Both the position numbers and the translations under genes were made by a program. The notes beneath the pieces are model-generated. The model did not search any database, had not been told where the DNA came from, and saw only the letters and a program-made list of their open reading frames with translations. This document shows, piece after piece, positions 3,760-59,939 of a stretch of 64,000 nt of DNA. The DNA is taken from contig NW_027253510.1 in the NCBI RefSeq assembly GCF_044704955.1, positions 62,001-126,000 on the forward strand. The letters are read 5' to 3'. How positions within the stretch are numbered: the first letter of the stretch is position 1; every line of letters starts with the position of its first letter. The stretch is from Pristiophorus japonicus. Lineage: Eukaryota.

Positions 3760-4242
3760 TAATTACTGACCGAATGCGATCAAGCTTGACTCCTAAATAG
3801 GAGGGTTTTGGGCATGGTTTACTTCAGTGCCGCAAAATGAGACTTTCAAAGCTTGGTTTTCTTGATGGGTGTTGAGGTGGAATGTCGAGGTGTCAGTCTC
3901 TTGATTTGTCTGAAGTTGCCATCGGTGGAAGTAAGCCTCCATCCTCTGTAAATAACTGGTAAGGGTCACTTCGGTGATGGACAGCCTCTCCAGCACTTTA
4001 TAACTAGTACAGAGGAAGGAGATCGGGCAGTAGCTGGAGGATTCACAAGTGTTCTTCCCCTGCTTCAGGAGGGCAATTAATTTAGTCTCCCTCCAAACTG
4101 GTGGAATTTTACCGGTTGCCAGTACCTCAGAGAAGGAGGTCAACTATATCTTTGCTTTGGGTCCCAGTGCTTTTAAGAATTTGGGGTAAACACCATTTGG
4201 ACCAACAGCTTTTCCAGGTTTGATTGTTGACGGGGCTGTTTT
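3760..4242 (-). mobile_element. Ingi/Vingi-like LINE reverse transcriptase fragment
   Basis: IKPGKAVGPNGVYPKFLK, WRETKLIALLKQGK...SYCPISFLCTSYKVLERL, FHLNTHQENQALKV; internally deleted. Clade assignment is from recollection of the motif, not a search. Confidence 0.65.
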
Positions 4243-4271
4243 GTGCACTGACTTAAGACTGGATCAAAATT
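4173..4271 (-). CDS. Putative terminal cytoplasmic exon (completes YMNF; 3' part derived from a LINE)
   Basis: 146-nt intron, acceptor ctaccttttgtttcag|AAT; NFDPVLSQCTKQPRQQSNLEKLLVQMVFTPNS*. From about 4240 downward the sequence is LINE reverse transcriptase read in another frame. Confidence 0.48.
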   Translation of the reverse strand, partial: NFDPVLSQCTKQPRQQSNLEKLLVQMVFTPNS

Positions 4272-7200
4272 CTGAAACAAAAGGTAGATGCAATCCATTA
4301 ACATTTTATTCTGAAAGATTGTTTTGATTTGGCTTAACTCACTATATTGACATGAATTTCTATATTGGTATCAATCACTAACTTAGTTTGAATGACTATA
4401 TTTGATAATATAGTTACCATGTATATCGAGTTGGAATCCGCTTGAAGATCACTTGATTTCTGTAATTTAAAACAAATGGTTGGAATCAGATGGAGGATGC
4501 AGACTGTATCCATTAAATATGAGTCCATGTAGCTTGTCGTAGAAACATGGAAAATAGATTTAGGAGTAGGCCATTCGGCCCTTCGAGCCTGCACCACCAT
4601 TCAATATGATCATGGCTGATCATGCATTTCAGTACCCCATTCCTGCTTTCTCTCCATACCCCTTGATCCCTTTAGCCGAGAGGGCCACATCTAACTCCCT
4701 TTTGAATATATCTAACGAACTGGCCCCAACAACTTTCTGTGGCAGAGAATTCCACATGCCCACAACTCTCTGAGTGAAGAAGTTTCTCCTCATCTCGGTC
4801 CTAAATGGCTTACCCCTTATCTTTAGACTGTGTCCCCTGGTTCTGGACTTCCCTAACATCGAGAACATTCTTCTTGCATCTAACCTGTCCAATCCCGTCA
4901 GAATTTTATATGTTTCTAAGAGATCCCCTCTCATTCTTCTAAATTCCATTAATGAGATGTCTGTCTCATCGGAGAACTCTGCAATGGGTGGTGTGATCTA
5001 ATCTGATACACATGCTTCTGAAATGAAGAGAGTAACTCTCTCTGATATTTGCCGTGCTACTTCTCCACATGGCTACAGATTGGTACAGGCAGCTTTCTCC
5101 GAGGGCCATAGGTGGGATGGCAATATCTGCTCCATCACTCCTCTGAAGCCTGAGGTGGCTCACATGCACCTGATCCTTGGATCTGAACGTCACTGCGAAT
5201 ATAGCAGATGCTGTAGAGCTTGGTGCCCGATGCAGGGTGTAATAAGCCTGCAGCTGAGCCCCAGTCTGTCAGGTGAGTGAGAGAGGCTTTTAAAATGGAT
5301 CCTGCTTTTTCACCTACAAAACAAGTATATTCTGCTTGTTTCACTTAAAACAGCATGTGTTCTACCTGCTCAAAATAAACCCTGTCCAAGGGCAGTTGTG
5401 ATAGCTGCTGATGTTGCCCCCATAAAGACATGACATAGGATTACATTGAATATATGGCACAGAAACAGACCATTTGGCCCAACCAGTCCATGCCAGCGTT
5501 TATGCTCCACTCGAGCTTCCTCCCGTCTTTCCTCATCTAAATTTATCAATATTACCCTCTATTCCCTTCTCCCTCATATGCTTGTCTCGCCTCCCCTTAA
5601 ATGCATCGATACTATTCGTTTCAACCACTCCCTGTGGTAGCGAGTTCCACATTCTCACCATTCTCTCGGTAAAGAAGTTTCTTTTGAATTCCTTATTGGA
5701 TTTCTTGATGACTATCTTATATTAATGGCCTCTAGTTATGTTCTTACCCACAAGTGGAAACATTTTCTATCCACTCTATCAAAACCGTTCATAAATTTAA
5801 AGCCCTCTATGAAACTACCCCTCAGCCGAAGTTTTTCAAGAGAAAAGAGACCCAGCCTGTTCATTCTTTCTTGATAGGTATACACTTGCATTTCTGGTAT
5901 CATCCTTGTAAACCTTCTCTGCACCCCCTCCAGTGCTTCTTTATTTCCTTGTTATAATATGACGACCAGAACTGTATGCAATACCCTAAGGGCTGAAAAT
6001 TCCATTTTTGGACATAGCGGTATTTTGTTTTAATGACTCCACTACTGCTACAAGGACAGTCATTTTCCAACATTCCATCGACTCTGGATCAGTTCCTATG
6101 GAGTGGAGGGTAGCCAATGTCACCCCACTTTTTAAAAAAGGAGGGAGAGAGAAAACAGCGAATTATAGACCGGTCAGCCTGACATCGGTAGTGGGTAAAA
6201 TGATGGAATCCATTATTAAGGATGTCATAGCAGCACATTTGGAAAGAGGTGACATGATGGGTCCAAGTCAGCATGGATTTGTGAAAGGAAAATCATTCTT
6301 GACAAATCTTCTGGAATTTTTTGAGGATGTTTCCAGTAGAGTGGACAAGGGAGAACATAGAAACATAGAAAATAGGTGCAGGAGTAGGTCATTCAGCCCT
6401 TCTAGCCTGCCTACCTGTGTGAAAGTGATTCAGGCAGCTTCAGTCAGCTCAGCGGTGTGGCGTCGTTCCTGCGAATGGGAGGGAGGGAGGGTCAGTCGGG
6501 CAGTAAACAGGCAGCAAGCAGCCTTCCACTTGAGGTGGAAACCTTACAGTCAGCTCAGCGGTGTGGCGTCGTTCCCGCGAACGGGAGGCAGGGAGGAGGC
6601 AGCCGTTCCCGACGGCGGGCGGGAGGGAGGGAGTGAGGGCCCGACCGACCGACCGCAGCGGGGGCCGGAGGCAGCCGACGCCGGGCGGGGGGGGAAGGAG
6701 GCAGTGAGAAGGCTGCAGGAAGCCTTAGTGCTGATCATATAAGGGCGATGTGCTTTTATTAAAAAATGTTCAAAAATTAAACAGCTACAAAGAACTACAA
6801 AAATGGCCGAGTGCCAATGTTTCCTTCACACTGCGCGTGCGCGAACACTCCAATGCGCATGCGCAGGGTTGCCGGCGTGAAAAAAACTAATTTAAATGGT
6901 ACCCGCCCCCTCCCACTTCAAAAATCGGCGCGAGTGGTAGGCTCCGCCCCCCTGGGCACCGCAACAAGCTGCCATGGCGCTGCAGGGCGCTCCAGAATCG
7001 CGCGTTTTTCTTCAGGCGCCATTTTTGGTGCAAAAAACGGGCGCCCAGCTCGGAGGGGGCGCCCGTTTTGTAGCGTGTGGAAACTTGGGGCCCTTATTAC
7101 TAATCTCCTTATCCAATGTCATGTGCACCTGTTCCAGCTTCCTGGTAAATATTGAAGCAAAATAATGATTGAATATTTCTGCCATCTCTCTGTCATTACT

Positions 7201-10200
7201 GGTGGTATTATCTCATCCACCCCTTAATGGCTCTATTCCCATCCCAACCTTCCTTTTATTATTATATGTCAGATGCTGCCTGACCCGCTGAGATTTCCAG
7301 CATTTTCTGCTTTTATTCCAGATTCCAGCATCTGCAGTATTTTGCTTTTGTGTTTCCTTTTTTTGTTGATGTGCCTGTAAAATATTTTACTATGTTGTTT
7401 TATGTTCCTTGATCATTTAATTTCATAGTTCCTCTTTGCCTTTATTTGCCTTCTCACCTAATCTTTTCCTATTCTCCTTTATCATACACTCTCCTGCTGT
7501 CTATGTACTTAATGTACGCCTTTTTCTTTACCCTCAATTGTTACCTCATGGCTTTATTCATCCATGGAGTCCCATTAGTGTTTAGTTTGTTCTTTCCTTT
7601 TAGCGGAATATATTGTCCCTGCATTCTGTTGATCATTTTAAATGCTTCCCATTGTTTATCTACATCATTTTTTCCCCAATATTGTTGCCCATTTTATTCT
7701 CCCAAGTTCTATTCTCAGCCCTTCAAAATCAGCTTTTCTTCAGTCTATTACCCTGGTAGTCATCATACTTATGTCCTTCTCAATTATCATAAAGCGTATT
7801 ATATTATGGTCACTATTGCCTAGATGCTCCCTTACTTTTACTTCTCTTATCTGCTCTGGTTCATTACTAGATCCAATAGCGAATGCTCCCTTGTTGGGCT
7901 CTTTATATATTGGGTTAGAAAGGAGTCCTGTACACATTGTAGAAACTCCATTCCCTTATCCCCTTTACCTACCTCTTCTTAAACAGCGCCATTGCAGTCA
8001 ATGGAGAAATACGCAGAAAACCATACTGTTGAGTCAAGGTCAAGGTCCACTACCTTCAGCTGCACATGGCCACCTGGTTTTAATCTTTAATGCGGGCAGA
8101 AACGGACTTGCTAAAACTGTCCTGCTCTGTTTTAGCGACTGCCTTGAGCTTCCTGGCACTTTGATGAACAAAAGCTGTCAATGTTGCTGGTGACACGCCA
8201 TCCTAACTTAAGTAGACTCTTGTGATAAATTCATTGGTGTAGTGTGCCTGTCTACCTGGTCTGAGGGGCCAGAGGCTTAGTTTTCTCACCTGCAGTGAAT
8301 TTCTCTGCTGGGATCTGGATTTTATGCTTTAAGTCACACTAACTCCCAAGTGTAACTTGAATTGACTTAAACGTGGAAGTTTTCTGCCGGCTCCCATTTT
8401 ATACCCATCACTGCCAAACATGCCCACCAGAGGTGTGGACACACACTATGTCCACCCATATCTGGGGCCATCTTATAATATGCAAATGACTCAATTACAC
8501 CATCTGATCTATTTGTTTCTCACTTGCCCCATGGTGACACTAGGTGCCAGGGTTAACTACTTGCCCCGGTATGTGTAGGGTGGTGGAGAAGTCATTTCAA
8601 TTACAAAAGCCCATCATTTGATTGTATTCGATTCTGTGCCTTGTTTTTAAAATGTACCTTTGTACAACTTTTAACAGGCAGCACAGAGGCTATTGATTGT
8701 GCGATGCTGGGCAGGTCCATCAGGAACTTCCACAGCCAATCTCTGCTCCTCCTCTGGGAGCACACACCTGGAAACTGCAAATAATCCTGTGACTAAAAAA
8801 TGGGCGAGGGTCATGGGTGCCTTCTTGTCGTGGCACAGGTCCCGCTGTGCCGAAAACATGCCAACATTCCGCAAAAGTGGTGAATGGTTGTTTATCGGAC
8901 TGGAGGAAGGTCTACGGTGGTGTTCCCCAGGGGTTGGTATTAGGACCACTGCTTTTCTTGATATATACTTATGACTTGGACTTGGGTGTACAAGGTACAA
9001 TTTCACAATTTGCAGATGGCGTAAAACTAGGAAGTATAGTGAACTGCGAGGATGATAGAGATAGACTTCAAGAGGACATAGACAGGCTGGTGGAATGGGC
9101 GGACACGTGGCAAATGAAATTTAATGCAGAAAAGTGCAAAGTGATGCATTTTGGTAGGAAGAACGAGGAGAGGCGATATAAACTAAAGGGTACAATCCTA
9201 AAAGGAGTGTATGAACAAAGAGACCTGGAGGCATATGTGCACAAATTGTTGAAGGTGGTCGGGCAGGTTGACAAAGTGGTTAAAAGCATATGGCATCCTG
9301 GGCTTCATAAATAGAGGCATAGGGACTGAAATTGCCCCTTTAAGGCCCGTCACCACCGCAAATCGGTGGCCACGCTGCGGAGTGGAGTGGCCATTGACTT
9401 TTGGCAGCTAACCCAGTTGCCCTCCCAAGTTTTCCCGGTGGTGCCCCGATCCTGCCCTTACCGTTCCTCTGTTGCTGATCGGTGTTAAGCACATCATCAC
9501 CGTGCGCACCGCCGATCTAACCCCACGACGGCGACATTCTCTTTGGCGCACCCGGCGGTGCCAAAACAACCTTTTTGCAGTGGTCCAGTGAGGCTGTGGC
9601 CTTCTGCAGTGCCGGTGTGGCTTCCCTTAAAGGGGAGGACGCACTGCCGCCATGTTTTTTTTTGTTGGCCGACCGCCAGGTTGACCCGACAATTATGCCC
9701 CTGGGTTCGGCTGGGCCGCCAACTCCCTCTTGGGTGGCAGGCCGCTGGCCTCGCCGAAACCCTCAACCAAAGTTTAAAAATGCAGAGGATCTCCCCTTTA
9801 AGTGAAGGGGAGAGCTGTGGTGATGTGGCGCTGCGATAACACCATCGCGGCGGTGAATACGCACCGCCCCCAACTTGCGCCCCTCAGTTGTTGTCACCGC
9901 CTCCATTATGTCTTTGCCCCTCAGGTGTAGTCACTGACCCCATTATGTCTTTGCCCCTCAGGTGTAGTCACTGACCCCATTATGTCTTTGCCCCTCAGGT
10001 GCAGTCACTGCCCCCATTATGTCTTTGCCCCTCAGGTGTAGTCACCGACCCCATTATGTCTTTATCCCTCAGGTGTTGTCACTGACCGCATTATGTCTTT
10101 GCCCCTCAGGTGTAGTCACTGACCCCATTATGTCTTTGCCCCTCAGGTGTAGTCACTGACCCCATTATGTCTTTGCCCCTCAGGTGTAGTCACTGACCCC

Positions 10201-13200
10201 ATTATGTCTTTGCTCCTCAGGTGCAGTCACTGACCCCATTATGTCTTGACCCCATTATGTCTTTACCCCTCAGGTGTAGTCACTGACCCCATTATGTCTT
10301 TGCCCCTCAGGTGTAGTCACTGACCCCATTATGTCTTTGCCCCTCAGGTGTAGTCACTGACCCCATTATGTCTTTGCCCCTCAGGTGTAGTCACCGCCCC
10401 CATTATGTCTTTGCCCCTCAGTTGTTGTCACCGACCCCATTATGTCTTTGCCCCTCAGGTGTAGTCACTGACCCCATTATGTCTTTACCCCTCAGGTGTA
10501 GTCACCGCCCCCATTATGTCTTTATCCCTCAGGTGTAGTCACCGCCCCCATTATGGCCGACTTCTGGATGGAAACAAAAAAAAACTAAGAGCAGAATTTC
10601 CTGAACGAGTCGACCTCAACCGCAACTGCGGTAAAAAAACATCGAAACAGGCCAATTCTGGGCACCGCACTTTAGGAAGGATGTGAAGGCCTTAGAGAGG
10701 GTGCAGAAAAGATTTACCAGAAACATTCCAGGGATGAGAGACTTTAGTTACTTCGCTCGACTGGAGAAGCTGGGGTTGTTCTCCTTAGAGCAGAGAAGGT
10801 TGAGAGGACAGTTGATAGAGGTGTTCAAAATCATGGGGGTCCGGACAGAATAGATAGAGAGAAACTGTTCCCATTGGCGGGAGCGCTGAGAACCAGAGGA
10901 CACAGATTTAAGGTGATTGGCAAAAGAACCAAAGGCGATATGAGGGAAAACTTTTTTACGCAGCGAGTGGTTGGGATATGGAATGCGCTGCCTGAAAGGG
11001 GGGTGGAGGCAGATTCAATTGTGGCTTTCAAAAGGGAATTGGATAAGTACCTGAAGGAAAATAAATTGCAGGGCTACAGGGAACGGGTGGCTGTGTGGGA
11101 CGTGCTTAAGTGCTCTTCCAGAGAGCCAGCACAGGCTCAACAGGCCGAATGGCCTCCTTCTGCGCTTTAACCATTCTATGACTTTAATTGGAAAAACCCA
11201 GCGATTGAGTCTTCAACTAGCGTACTGTAGAAGGGCTTCATTGGGCCTCCTTTTAGGCTAAGGTGTTGATATTATGGTCCAAAGGGATATGGACATGAGA
11301 AACCTCAAGCCAGCAGAAGTGTTCTATGCAGGATGAAGAGGAAGGGCTCTACTCAGGTCAGGATCTGCAGAGCTTGTATATTGAGATGTGGGCCACGTTC
11401 CCAACAAATGGTTCTGTGTATTTGGACCACTACAGTGGTGGGAATTGGGAGTTCTCTGTATGAAGGGAGTCCTATGTTACCGGCCTGATAGTTACCTTCT
11501 TGGAGAGATGAGGTTTAATCTGTCTTTGGTTTGCATAGAGTTCAGAACCAGTCGGTGCCAATAAAGTCTTGTTGCTGGTTGGTGGTGCTAAATTCTTAAA
11601 GGGTAAAAAGCGCCTCAGTGATGATTGGTGCTGGTGACCTCTTGGTGCCGACTGATGCTGGTGAGTCCATTGTGTTGGTTGAAGTTGCTGATCCTTCAGT
11701 TCTCGGCAATGCTGGTGTTTCTCAAGCACTTGTTCAGTCTTGCTTTGTCCTGAAATGAAGCGTCTAGTTTGGTATTTTCTGGAGGTACATGCTTCTCTGT
11801 TGGCAGATCTCAACTCCTTGGGCTTCTGGGAAAACTGAAAAAAGAAAAGCAAGAAATCCAGATAGGTCACTTTAGGCAACAGCATATTTGGTACTTTAGT
11901 GTCTCTCAACAATCTAAGGTGTCTCTGTCTTGGCTCAGTTGGTAGCACTCTCATCTCTGAATCAGAAGGTTGTGTGTTCAACATAAGAACATAAGAATTA
12001 GGTACAGGAGTCGGCCATTTGGCCCCTCGAGCCTGCTCCGCCATTCAGTAAGATCATTGCTGATCTTGTACCTCGACTCCACTTTCCCGCACTATCCCCA
12101 TATCCCTCGATTGCCTTAATATCCAAAAATCTATCGATCTCTGTCTTGAACATACTCAACGACTGAGCCTCCACATTCAAGTCTAGAGAACGATCTCTGT
12201 GCTGGAACGGACAGGCCCAAAGCTCACCCAATATCGGGCTTCTCATTTACACCAAACCGACGAGCTGCAGACACCTGCTCGGATCTCCCCAGGCAGCACG
12301 GCGTTGAAGAGTATTTGAATTTGTGGTTACTGCATCAGGTATAGGTCTCGGGAGAAGGGGATGTGCCCGGGAGAGGGGGGGAAATCTAGACAGGTGCGGG
12401 GGCACTCCTGCACCTGTCGGCTCCACATTCATGTAAGTATTTATTTTAAACTTCCCTTTTGCTGGTGGCCTCCAGCGGCTCCATTGAGGGGTGCTGGTTA
12501 GGCTGCAGGAAGACCTGGTTTTCTTGAATGCAGCCGGCCTGGTGCCAGCTGTGTTCAGGCAAACCAATTTGGTAAAGGAAGCATCAACCAGGCACTCGGC
12601 CCCTGATTTGCAAATGCAAAGGACTAATGGCTGTTTCAGACGTGGGCCTTGGACGCCTCTTTTGATGCCTATACCAATATGGCGGGTGGTGCACACCCAA
12701 CATGCAATATACACGTGCTGCTTGACCACTGCACTGGACACTTAGGTGCCCGTTTTATGCCTGTAAAATGGACCCAACGTCATCGAATTTCTAGGCCATA
12801 TTACTTTAAATACTCCAGGAACATTAACAAAAGACTGGCACTGGGCCAACCAACTCGACTCACTTGTGTGCGTCCGGGAAGAGAGATGTTTTCATAATTG
12901 GGTGCTGGCAATGTAGTGGCAGTGTGGACAGACGGGGCTGTAAAGGAAATCACAGAATGTCACCAACACCGAGTGTAGATAGGAACACGCAAACATGGAG
13001 GTTGGGGAAAGGCCATTGGGTGGTCCCAAAGTTCTCACAAACCCAAACTGTACTGTGTCGTCCGTAGCCCATAACACTTCTTTCACCAAAATAATCGACC
13101 CAACTCTCTCTTTAATTCGCTGACACTCTCGCCCTTCAATGACTCAAACAATAGAAAAATACTGCGGATACTGGAAATCTGAAATAAAAACAGAAAACGC

Positions 13201-58570: not shown

Positions 58571-59939
58571 GTGAATATGTTTTTTCCAGAGGACGGCCCA
58601 CTTGCTCTTGTTATTCGTTCCTCTTTATGTGGTTTGTACTTGAGCTGTGAGAACCCTGTAAGGAAGTTCAGTGACAATCAGCTATCTCTGAAACATCGAC
58701 GGTAGCATATTATACAGTGTGTGAATGAACAGGAATTTCATCTTTTAAAAATAATTAATTTGAAATGTTTGGCCCGAGGCTCACAGCCGTGACTCTGACC
58801 CTCTGTGTTGCAGTGGGTAAGTAAATGTCCAGAGTGGGGTCACCCAACCTGGGTTTGGTTTCATATGATCACATTTCTGAGTTTGATTTCGCGATTGTTG
58901 CCGGGTGGTGTGAGTCAGGTATTTTGCAGTCAGATATTTATGTTTAAGAATTGAGATATGTTGGGATTTCTCATGGTTCAGTGGACAAATACCCGGTAAG
59001 ATGTGACACTGAGCCACACTGCCCAGTTATCCCACTCCTGGTCTGTGTGTGTGACTGCTGGGGTGTGGAGACCAATAGGATCAACTGCTCTTCCAGGCTG
59101 AGAAGCCATCCACGATGTATTGTTCAGATTCACTTGTGAAGAACAGGCGTTGGGTGAGCTATCAGTAGGCTGGCCCCTCCTGTGAGGTAAGAGACAGTAT
59201 TATACTAAAAGCAAAGGCTGACACAAATGAAAAGCAATGTGGAAATAAAGCAACAAAGGGATACAAAGAAAGTAAGAGCTGCATAAAGGAATACAGAAAA
59301 AACTGGTGAAAATTATCAAAGCAAACAGCAGAAGTTATCAACAACAACAACTGGTATTTATATAGCACCTTTAATGTAGTGAAACTTCCCAAGGGGCTTC
59401 ACAGGAGTATTATGAGAGATAAAATTTGACACCAAGCTGCATAAGCAGAAATTAGTGCAGGTGATCAAAAGCTTGGTCAAAGAGGTATGTTTTAAGGATT
59501 GTCTTGAAGGAGGAAAGAGAGGCGGAGAGGTTTAGGCAGGGAGTTCCAGAGCTTGGGGCCCAGGCAACAGAAGGCACGGCCACCAATGGTGGAGCGATTA
59601 TAATCAGGGATGGGCAAGAGGGCAGAATTAGAGAAGCACAAACATCTCGGGGGACTGTATGGCAGGAGGAGATTACAGAGATAGGGAGGGGCGAGGCCAT
59701 GGAAGGATTTGAAAACAAGGATGAGAACTTTGAAATCGAGGCATTGCTTCACCGGAAGCTAATGTAAGTCAGCGAGCTCAGGGGTGATGGGTGAGTGGGA
59801 CTTGGTGCGAGTTAGGACACGGACAGCCGAGTTTTGGATCACCTCTAGTTTACGTAGGGCCGAATGTGGAGGCCGGCTAGGAGTGCTTTGGAATAGTCAA
59901 GTCACGAGGTGACAAAGGCACTGATGGGTGTTTCAGTTT

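Follow-up and report, generated by a model that had tools for sequence, protein, structure and literature searches.

The minus strand of a 64,000-nt stretch of Pristiophorus japonicus DNA (GCF_044704955.1, contig NW_027253510.1, positions 62,001-126,000 of the forward strand; hereafter the window) raises the question of what kind of immunoglobulin (Ig) receptor carries three YxN tyrosine motifs on separate cytoplasmic exons, one of them put together only by splicing, and of whether the copy found here can still encode it. The exons of the gene, in window positions, are as follows.

24126..24476, minus strand: V1 exon, a germline-joined VJ Ig domain, phase 1-1, with an in-frame TGA at 24168-24166
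13732..14076, minus strand: V2 exon, a VJ Ig V-set domain, open, phase 1-1, Pfam V-set 2.8e-17
13455..13589, minus strand: stalk and uncharged transmembrane (TM) exon with an ATG in frame (MDEDL) and one juxtamembrane Cys
12864..12937, minus strand: cytoplasmic exon 1 with YENI (motif 1), reading PSVHTATTLPAPNYENISLPGRTQ, Tyr codon at 12896-12894
11496..11834, minus strand: cytoplasmic exon 2 with ELYANQ (YANQ, motif 2), Tyr codon at 11537-11535
4418..4459, minus strand: 42-nt exon with C-terminal SIYM, reading KSSDLQADSNSIYM, Tyr codon at 4423-4421
4173..4271, minus strand: last exon, with NFDP at its start completing YMNF (motif 3), stop at 4175-4173

The introns are GT..AG throughout and their phases are compatible in a translation of all exons, which agrees with the first-pass annotation in placing YENI, YANQ and YM|NF on separate, canonical in-frame exons of the minus strand. 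The fourth tail tyrosine lies in KYQT and lacks Asn at +2, which leaves three of the four with Asn in that position, an arrangement that 41 of 100,000 shuffles reach (P = 0.0004, calculated post hoc on the tail of the near-identical paralogue P0114). The tail, which is likely disordered, had been described as free of a canonical ITAM or ITIM; the translations, read against the usual consensus motifs and that of PMC4536121, concur and show no ITSM in the window tail either, and a YxxL/I-x(6-8)-YxxL/I arrangement is absent both from it and from the long-tail orthologues P0119 and P0120. A p85 site of the CD28 kind is absent, the motif being YMNF and not YMNM.

Evidence that these exons are joined comes from public sequencing runs, two of the four compared yielding splice joins; no record lists these runs as RNA, yet the joins coincide with splice sites. 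In contig sequence from run X10, position 12864 is joined to 11834 and position 11496 to 4459. The joint 4418/4271, at which 146 nt with the ends CT..AC are skipped, is present in both X9 and X10, so that the proposal that IYM|NF arises only by splicing 4418 to 4271 is borne out in paralogue letters. The joined contigs do not exactly match the window copy and carry the last-exon letters of the other copy subgroup; the splicing is therefore established for the subfamily and not for the window copy. One X10 contig, over 4106-4216, differs from the window by one letter. In X1 and X5 there are no joins of the window gene among the matches listed, X5 being without a contig on 4060-4560, and neither V2-TM nor TM-exon-1 joins occur among the matches listed. 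The X10 contig with the spliced tail keeps the intron before tail exon 1 (window 13185-12938), for which a retained intron, partly processed RNA and an internal start are possible alternatives. In an X9 contig a different 28-nt upstream piece is joined to the 42-nt exon (loose end at window 4461); it resembles a LINE-like fragment near 5912-5887 in the long intron and is possibly a cryptic exon.

The V domains place the gene in a family. A search with V2 returned 110 proteins, of which 108 are named as shark or ray and one has no species given; the remaining one, a light chain of a shark at 49%, is the nearest match of the V domain outside the family. The closest matches, 90-95% identical, are labelled Pristiophorus japonicus. 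With regard to the CD300-type V domain of the MDIR / CD300-like receptors of skate, the best 60 solved-structure matches of the V domain here are all antibody V domains. The CDR3 strings of the window V exons are KVWGDISG and GI*GTSYG. The window V1 and V2 are 86% and 94% identical to those of the ITAM-type sibling P0066 and 81% and 93% identical to those of an ITIM-type sibling, which is the pattern of a paired receptor family. Sorted by regular expressions of our own, the tails of 112 family proteins comprise 43 of ITIM/ITSM type, 21 of ITAM type, 10 with YxN only (one of them a mis-ended ITAM-type model) and 38 that are short, other or without a TM. At least one YxN is found in 18 of the 21 ITAM-type siblings, motif 1 occurring in most. 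The gene is a member of a shark and ray germline VJ-domain receptor family, of the YxN-only subtype, and no published description of an elasmobranch multi-VJ receptor family was found in the open literature searched.

The family is greatly expanded in the genome, including C9:4.4-6.2 Mb, with most copies on small contigs; of 528 V-exon candidates the best 150 were scored, about 55 of them being of V1 type, and leader copies number 32. A leader exon of a neighbouring family gene, MFGPRLTAVTLTLCVAVG, lies on the plus strand at window 58765-58818, head-to-head with the window gene; the next plus-strand V1 is at C2898:149078, and the same head-to-head leader arrangement is seen in the other five group A copies.

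Most of the tail motifs are conserved in other sharks. Three long-tail orthologues, P0119 (Carcharodon), P0121 (Cetorhinus) and P0120 (Stegostoma), came up in a search with a profile built from six short YxN tails; they are 50-56% identical to the sawshark model over TM and tail and come from species that presumably span the deep split of modern sharks. A second profile, in a representative search, gave eight matches, of which four were already known and P0122 and P0124 are family members; P0123 is by inspection unrelated to the family. A word-seeded search had returned only two sawshark proteins for cytoplasmic exon 2, and the notion that this exon is specific to the sawshark was ruled out when the profile search found orthologues that have it. 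Conservation had been put forward as the check on the three tyrosines, and at the family level it holds for most of them: motif 2 (YAN; DIYANQ, GIYANR, EIYANY) and motif 3 (YxN[FL]DP; IYMNFDP, TYVNLDP, TYANFDP) are kept in four of four long-tail orthologues, and motif 1 in only two of the four (HYKNI), all of these being predicted gene models, two of them 89% identical to each other, with a complete leader-V-TM-tail in P0120 only and no species given for P0122. Exon 2 is missing from all seven short-tail sister proteins, in which motifs 1 and 3 are retained, both tyrosines being YxN. The Asn at +2 is invariant, positions +1 and +3 vary (YANI, YENV, YVNM, YTNV, YANQ), and acidic residues precede motif 2 in all orthologues. 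An extra YSN is present in three of the four long-tail orthologues, within a stretch of about 17 residues that is missing from cytoplasmic exon 2 of the window. In P0120 tail exon 2 is tandemly duplicated, giving five YxN motifs, and a CxxC (CIRC) directly after the TM is found only in the zebra shark proteins P0118 and P0120. Long- and short-tail gene pairs within a species (P0119/P0074 and P0121/P0072) share a near-identical TM exon, which suggests conversion or exon sharing between the subtypes.

What the motifs would do in an intact member can be proposed from their pattern. YxN is described as a GRB2/GADS motif in PMC11599192 and PMC2196071, and Grb2/Gads binding with a costimulatory role may be inferred for the tail, the Grb2-type assignment resting on the pattern of a short motif. 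In intact relatives the receptor would be clustered by ligand and its tail tyrosines phosphorylated by Src- or Syk-family kinases; the SH2 domains of Grb2, Gads or Grap could then dock at several pYxN sites, and the docked adaptors may feed Sos-Ras-ERK or Gab/Cbl. Since there is neither an ITAM nor a charged TM residue, such a receptor would be expected to amplify or tune signals begun by other receptors rather than to start them.

The tyrosines of the intact relatives might instead serve dampening or trafficking, through Grb2-Cbl, phosphatase docking or YxxI/F endocytosis, and not co-stimulation, and we consider this unlikely while giving it some weight. YENI and YMNF also fit the Yxx-hydrophobic pattern, which is a type of endocytosis signal, and motif 1, being present in most ITAM-type siblings, does not mark a costimulatory class. 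According to PMC2196071, NTAL has five YxN and binds Grb2 and c-Cbl but not PLC-gamma, which would also suit a dampening role. Against these points, the invariant Asn at +2 together with the variation at +1 and +3 fits Grb2-type selection better than selection of the AP2 or SHP type, as judged by their binding specificities.

The third motif has a counterpart in a sibling gene. The four ITAM-type sibling loci examined in this genome all have a 42-nt exon encoding NSGDRLED[PQ]NATYM, followed by an exon ALQQPDQSIYSELK, and the splice product reads YMAL-x7-YSEL. The 42-nt exon of the window is evidently related to the sibling NATYM exon, the alignment score being reached by one of 500 shuffles and, with flanks included, by none of 500; tail exon 1 is likewise homologous to an ITAM-type sibling exon (0 of 500). 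Homology of the last exon to the ITAM-completing exon of the sibling was also considered and rejected as no better than chance, the score being reached by 253 and by 101 of 500 shuffles. The new element here is that the same "...YM" exon leads to ALQQPDQSIYSEL, and so to an ITAM, in the sibling and to NFDP, a predicted Grb2-type site, in the window gene. PMC4536121 states that in the classical ITAM an exon boundary always interrupts the first tyrosine module, and a remark of the first-pass annotation on the split tyrosine exons of ITAM-bearing genes proves literally right, the sibling NATYM exon being homologous to the window SIYM exon. One subtype would owe its ITAM, and the other its Grb2 site, to the different last exon placed behind a shared "...YM" exon, a change that could have run in either direction.

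Whether the window copy is still a gene is a separate matter, for which two repeats next to its exons are of relevance.

24534..24790, minus strand: dispersed repeat of high copy number, which by eye looks LTR-like and whose end lies about 58 nt upstream of the V1 acceptor
3960..4245, minus strand: dispersed repeat whose translation is LINE-like and which overlaps the last exon in its 3' part

The V1 TGA lies 40 nt before the donor and replaces the conserved Trp of ICGIWG in relatives; an identical copy with the same V1 stop is found at C1414:437933. Searches of the window by PSSM, at the DNA level and by tblastn with 48 family N-termini located no same-strand leader; the only leader that they found is that of the neighbour on the plus strand. 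In the last exon the TAA at 4255-4253, situated where the orthologues stop, is two bases out of frame and the frame continues into the repeat; the copy C3248 has two bases more in this exon and ends NFDPQS. The 3960..4245 repeat has 438 candidates genome-wide and at least 22 non-family matches at 86-90%, most of which begin at window ~4247-4231; it has no match in Pfam, and its motifs suggest a LINE. The 24534..24790 repeat has 1989 candidates genome-wide and is common to all six group A copies, and the window shares 97-98% identity over at least 10 kb upstream of V1 with the four other group A copies compared.

The other copies have fared similarly. Exon 2 occurs 18 times in the genome, in two types, that of the window with 6 copies and another with 12, some of these possibly being alternative haplotypes or haplotype duplicates, and a V exon is broken in all 18 by at least four different lesion patterns: two copies have the V1 stop, two a 10-nt and two a 2-nt deletion in V2, and twelve an upstream-V stop with a 7-nt V2 deletion. 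The variants in TM and tail amount to 29 nonsynonymous and 8 synonymous, a pN/pS of 1.06 (binomial p = 1.0 versus neutrality) as compared with 0.49 in V2, in a weak test that counts only 37 distinct variants and is not tree-based. No V exon more than 50% identical to the V type of the orthologues was found in the genome in a search whose first step was stricter, the best match being at 50%. With a V1 stop, no leader found and a last exon that runs into a repeat, the window copy is probably dead, and the earlier view that it encodes a working Ig receptor is not upheld, the variation also looking neutral; it is probably a disabled duplicate, and decay after segmental duplication is the simplest reading for the sawshark copies. 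Counted against this are the transcription and splicing of the subfamily, the TM-to-tail frame, which is open in 15 of the 18 copies, and the phase 1-1 V exons, skipping of which keeps the frame.

Several further features of the copies deserve mention. Another TM exon of the second copy group, outside the 18 counted, lies at G000:C284:87159 near the end of an 88,532-base contig, and in the assembly it is not accompanied by tail exon 2. Exon 2 and its upstream intron (window 11960-11496) differ by about 1% between the copy groups, versus 3-10% for other introns and exons, which suggests recent gene conversion. The V1-V2 intron contains at window ~17200-23700 a CT-rich degenerate tandem array of about 6.5 kb, partly masked, with a unit like CCCGATCGTGGCC plus CT runs; in other group A copies V1 and V2 lie closer together by 2-5 kb. 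In the intron after tail exon 2 (window ~10540-9890) there is a tandem repeat of ~38 nt with about 17 copies by eye.

Taken as a whole, we judge it fairly probable that the window holds the spliced tail of a YxN-only shark multi-V receptor, whose intact relatives are likely a phosphotyrosine scaffold for Grb2-type adaptors, and that the sawshark copy is likely a disabled duplicate. The same breakage could be read differently, namely that the sawshark copies have lost the ectodomain and now begin at the TM-exon ATG as short-headed transmembrane adaptors similar to LAT/NTAL, an improbable course of events by our estimate. It would account for V exons broken in every copy by several lesion patterns while the TM-tail frame mostly stays open, and the database model P0114, a paralogue, begins at the TM-exon Met, from which a very short ectopeptide is possible; eight of the ten other YxN-type proteins possessing a TM exon also have a Met at that position, and the juxtamembrane Cys is present. 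Look-alikes of the orthologue tail in the ESM Atlas include SCIMP, LST1 and GAPT at 0.75-0.80, a lead only, being below the 0.9 bar; all feature matches there are at or below 0.80 and structure matches have TM-scores of at most 0.23. However, the pN/pS of TM and tail is not below that of V2, the tails are broken in 3 of the 18 copies, the YSN motif and the ancestral stop have been lost, the window copy has no CxxC, and among the contigs listed none starts at or joins from the TM exon. The full version, in which 18 copies shed the leader, had V broken, kept the Met and would be translated as a LAT/NTAL-like scaffold with its last Grb2 site taken from half an ITAM, seems to us a long shot; if true, this receptor-to-adaptor subfamily would be a living model of the origin of transmembrane adaptors from Ig receptors. 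That the window copy still yields a one-V receptor by skipping the broken V1, from a leader not located, would agree with the phase 1-1 of V1, the open V2, TM and tail and the single V of P0120, but is very unlikely, there being no same-strand leader between V1 and the neighbour's leader at 58765, a repeat 58 nt upstream of V1, and a V2 that is itself broken in sixteen other copies.

Paired immune receptor families usually have "on" forms, with an ITAM or coupled to an adaptor, and "off" forms with an ITIM, and to these the shark family appears to add a third type of tail, which is conserved and has Grb2-type sites only. Changing the last exon behind one and the same tyrosine exon would be a simple route between tail types. 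The building of signalling motifs by splicing can here be put to the test in the oldest lineage that has adaptive immunity. For this the window copy is a poor test subject, and study is better directed at the orthologue of the zebra shark or the white shark. The feature itself is real and conserved and belongs to an undescribed receptor subtype, seen here in a probably disabled copy.

Among known systems, UrIg and UrIg2 share with the family the elasmobranch origin and a single-exon, non-rearranging VJ domain; according to PMC12227049 UrIg2 has one VJ and many C1 domains, in contrast to tandem V domains only and tyrosine tails in the window family. The two-exon ITAM genes (CD3, CD79b, FcR-gamma, DAP12) have, according to PMC4536121, a boundary that splits the first tyrosine module, as do YM|AL in the sibling and YM|NF in the window, whereas the second exon of the window gene supplies neither the L nor a second YxxL and its TM is uncharged. 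The LAT/NTAL adaptors resemble the window gene in several YxN on a multi-exon tail and a juxtamembrane Cys, and differ in a 6-aa-type ectopeptide and a CxxC (both per PMC2196071), where the shark family has Ig V domains; the window copy has YxN at three of four tyrosines and one Cys in place of CxxC, and no sequence homology with LAT/NTAL was found, Pfam being blank. The CD28 family (CD28 with YMNM, CD28H with YxN) has in common an Ig V ectodomain, one TM and a GRB2/GADS-type YxN motif, but a single V with CDR3 proline motifs, as given in PMC11599192, against two antibody-like VJ domains and no PPP here; the window gene also has three YxN motifs, and YMNF in place of the YxxM PI3K site, so that neither the single V with its CDR3 proline motif nor the YxxM of CD28/CTLA4 is present. 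The tail, by analogy, likely resembles that of CD28H or NTAL, and the gene likely belongs to neither family. The direct orthologues are the unnamed elasmobranch multi-VJ paired receptors (for example XP_041038629.1, XP_048391606.1 and XP_078413669.1, "uncharacterized" or "-like" at NCBI). The window copy has the VJ V-set domains and the TM and tail homology of this long-YxN subtype and lacks the intact leader-V-TM-tail frame. The orthologues share with it the TM, the cytoplasmic exons and the YAN and YxN[FL]DP motifs and, unlike it, have a V domain of another type, 47-49% identical to the window V1 and V2, and end NFDPRY or NLDPRH, three of them with the extra YSN.
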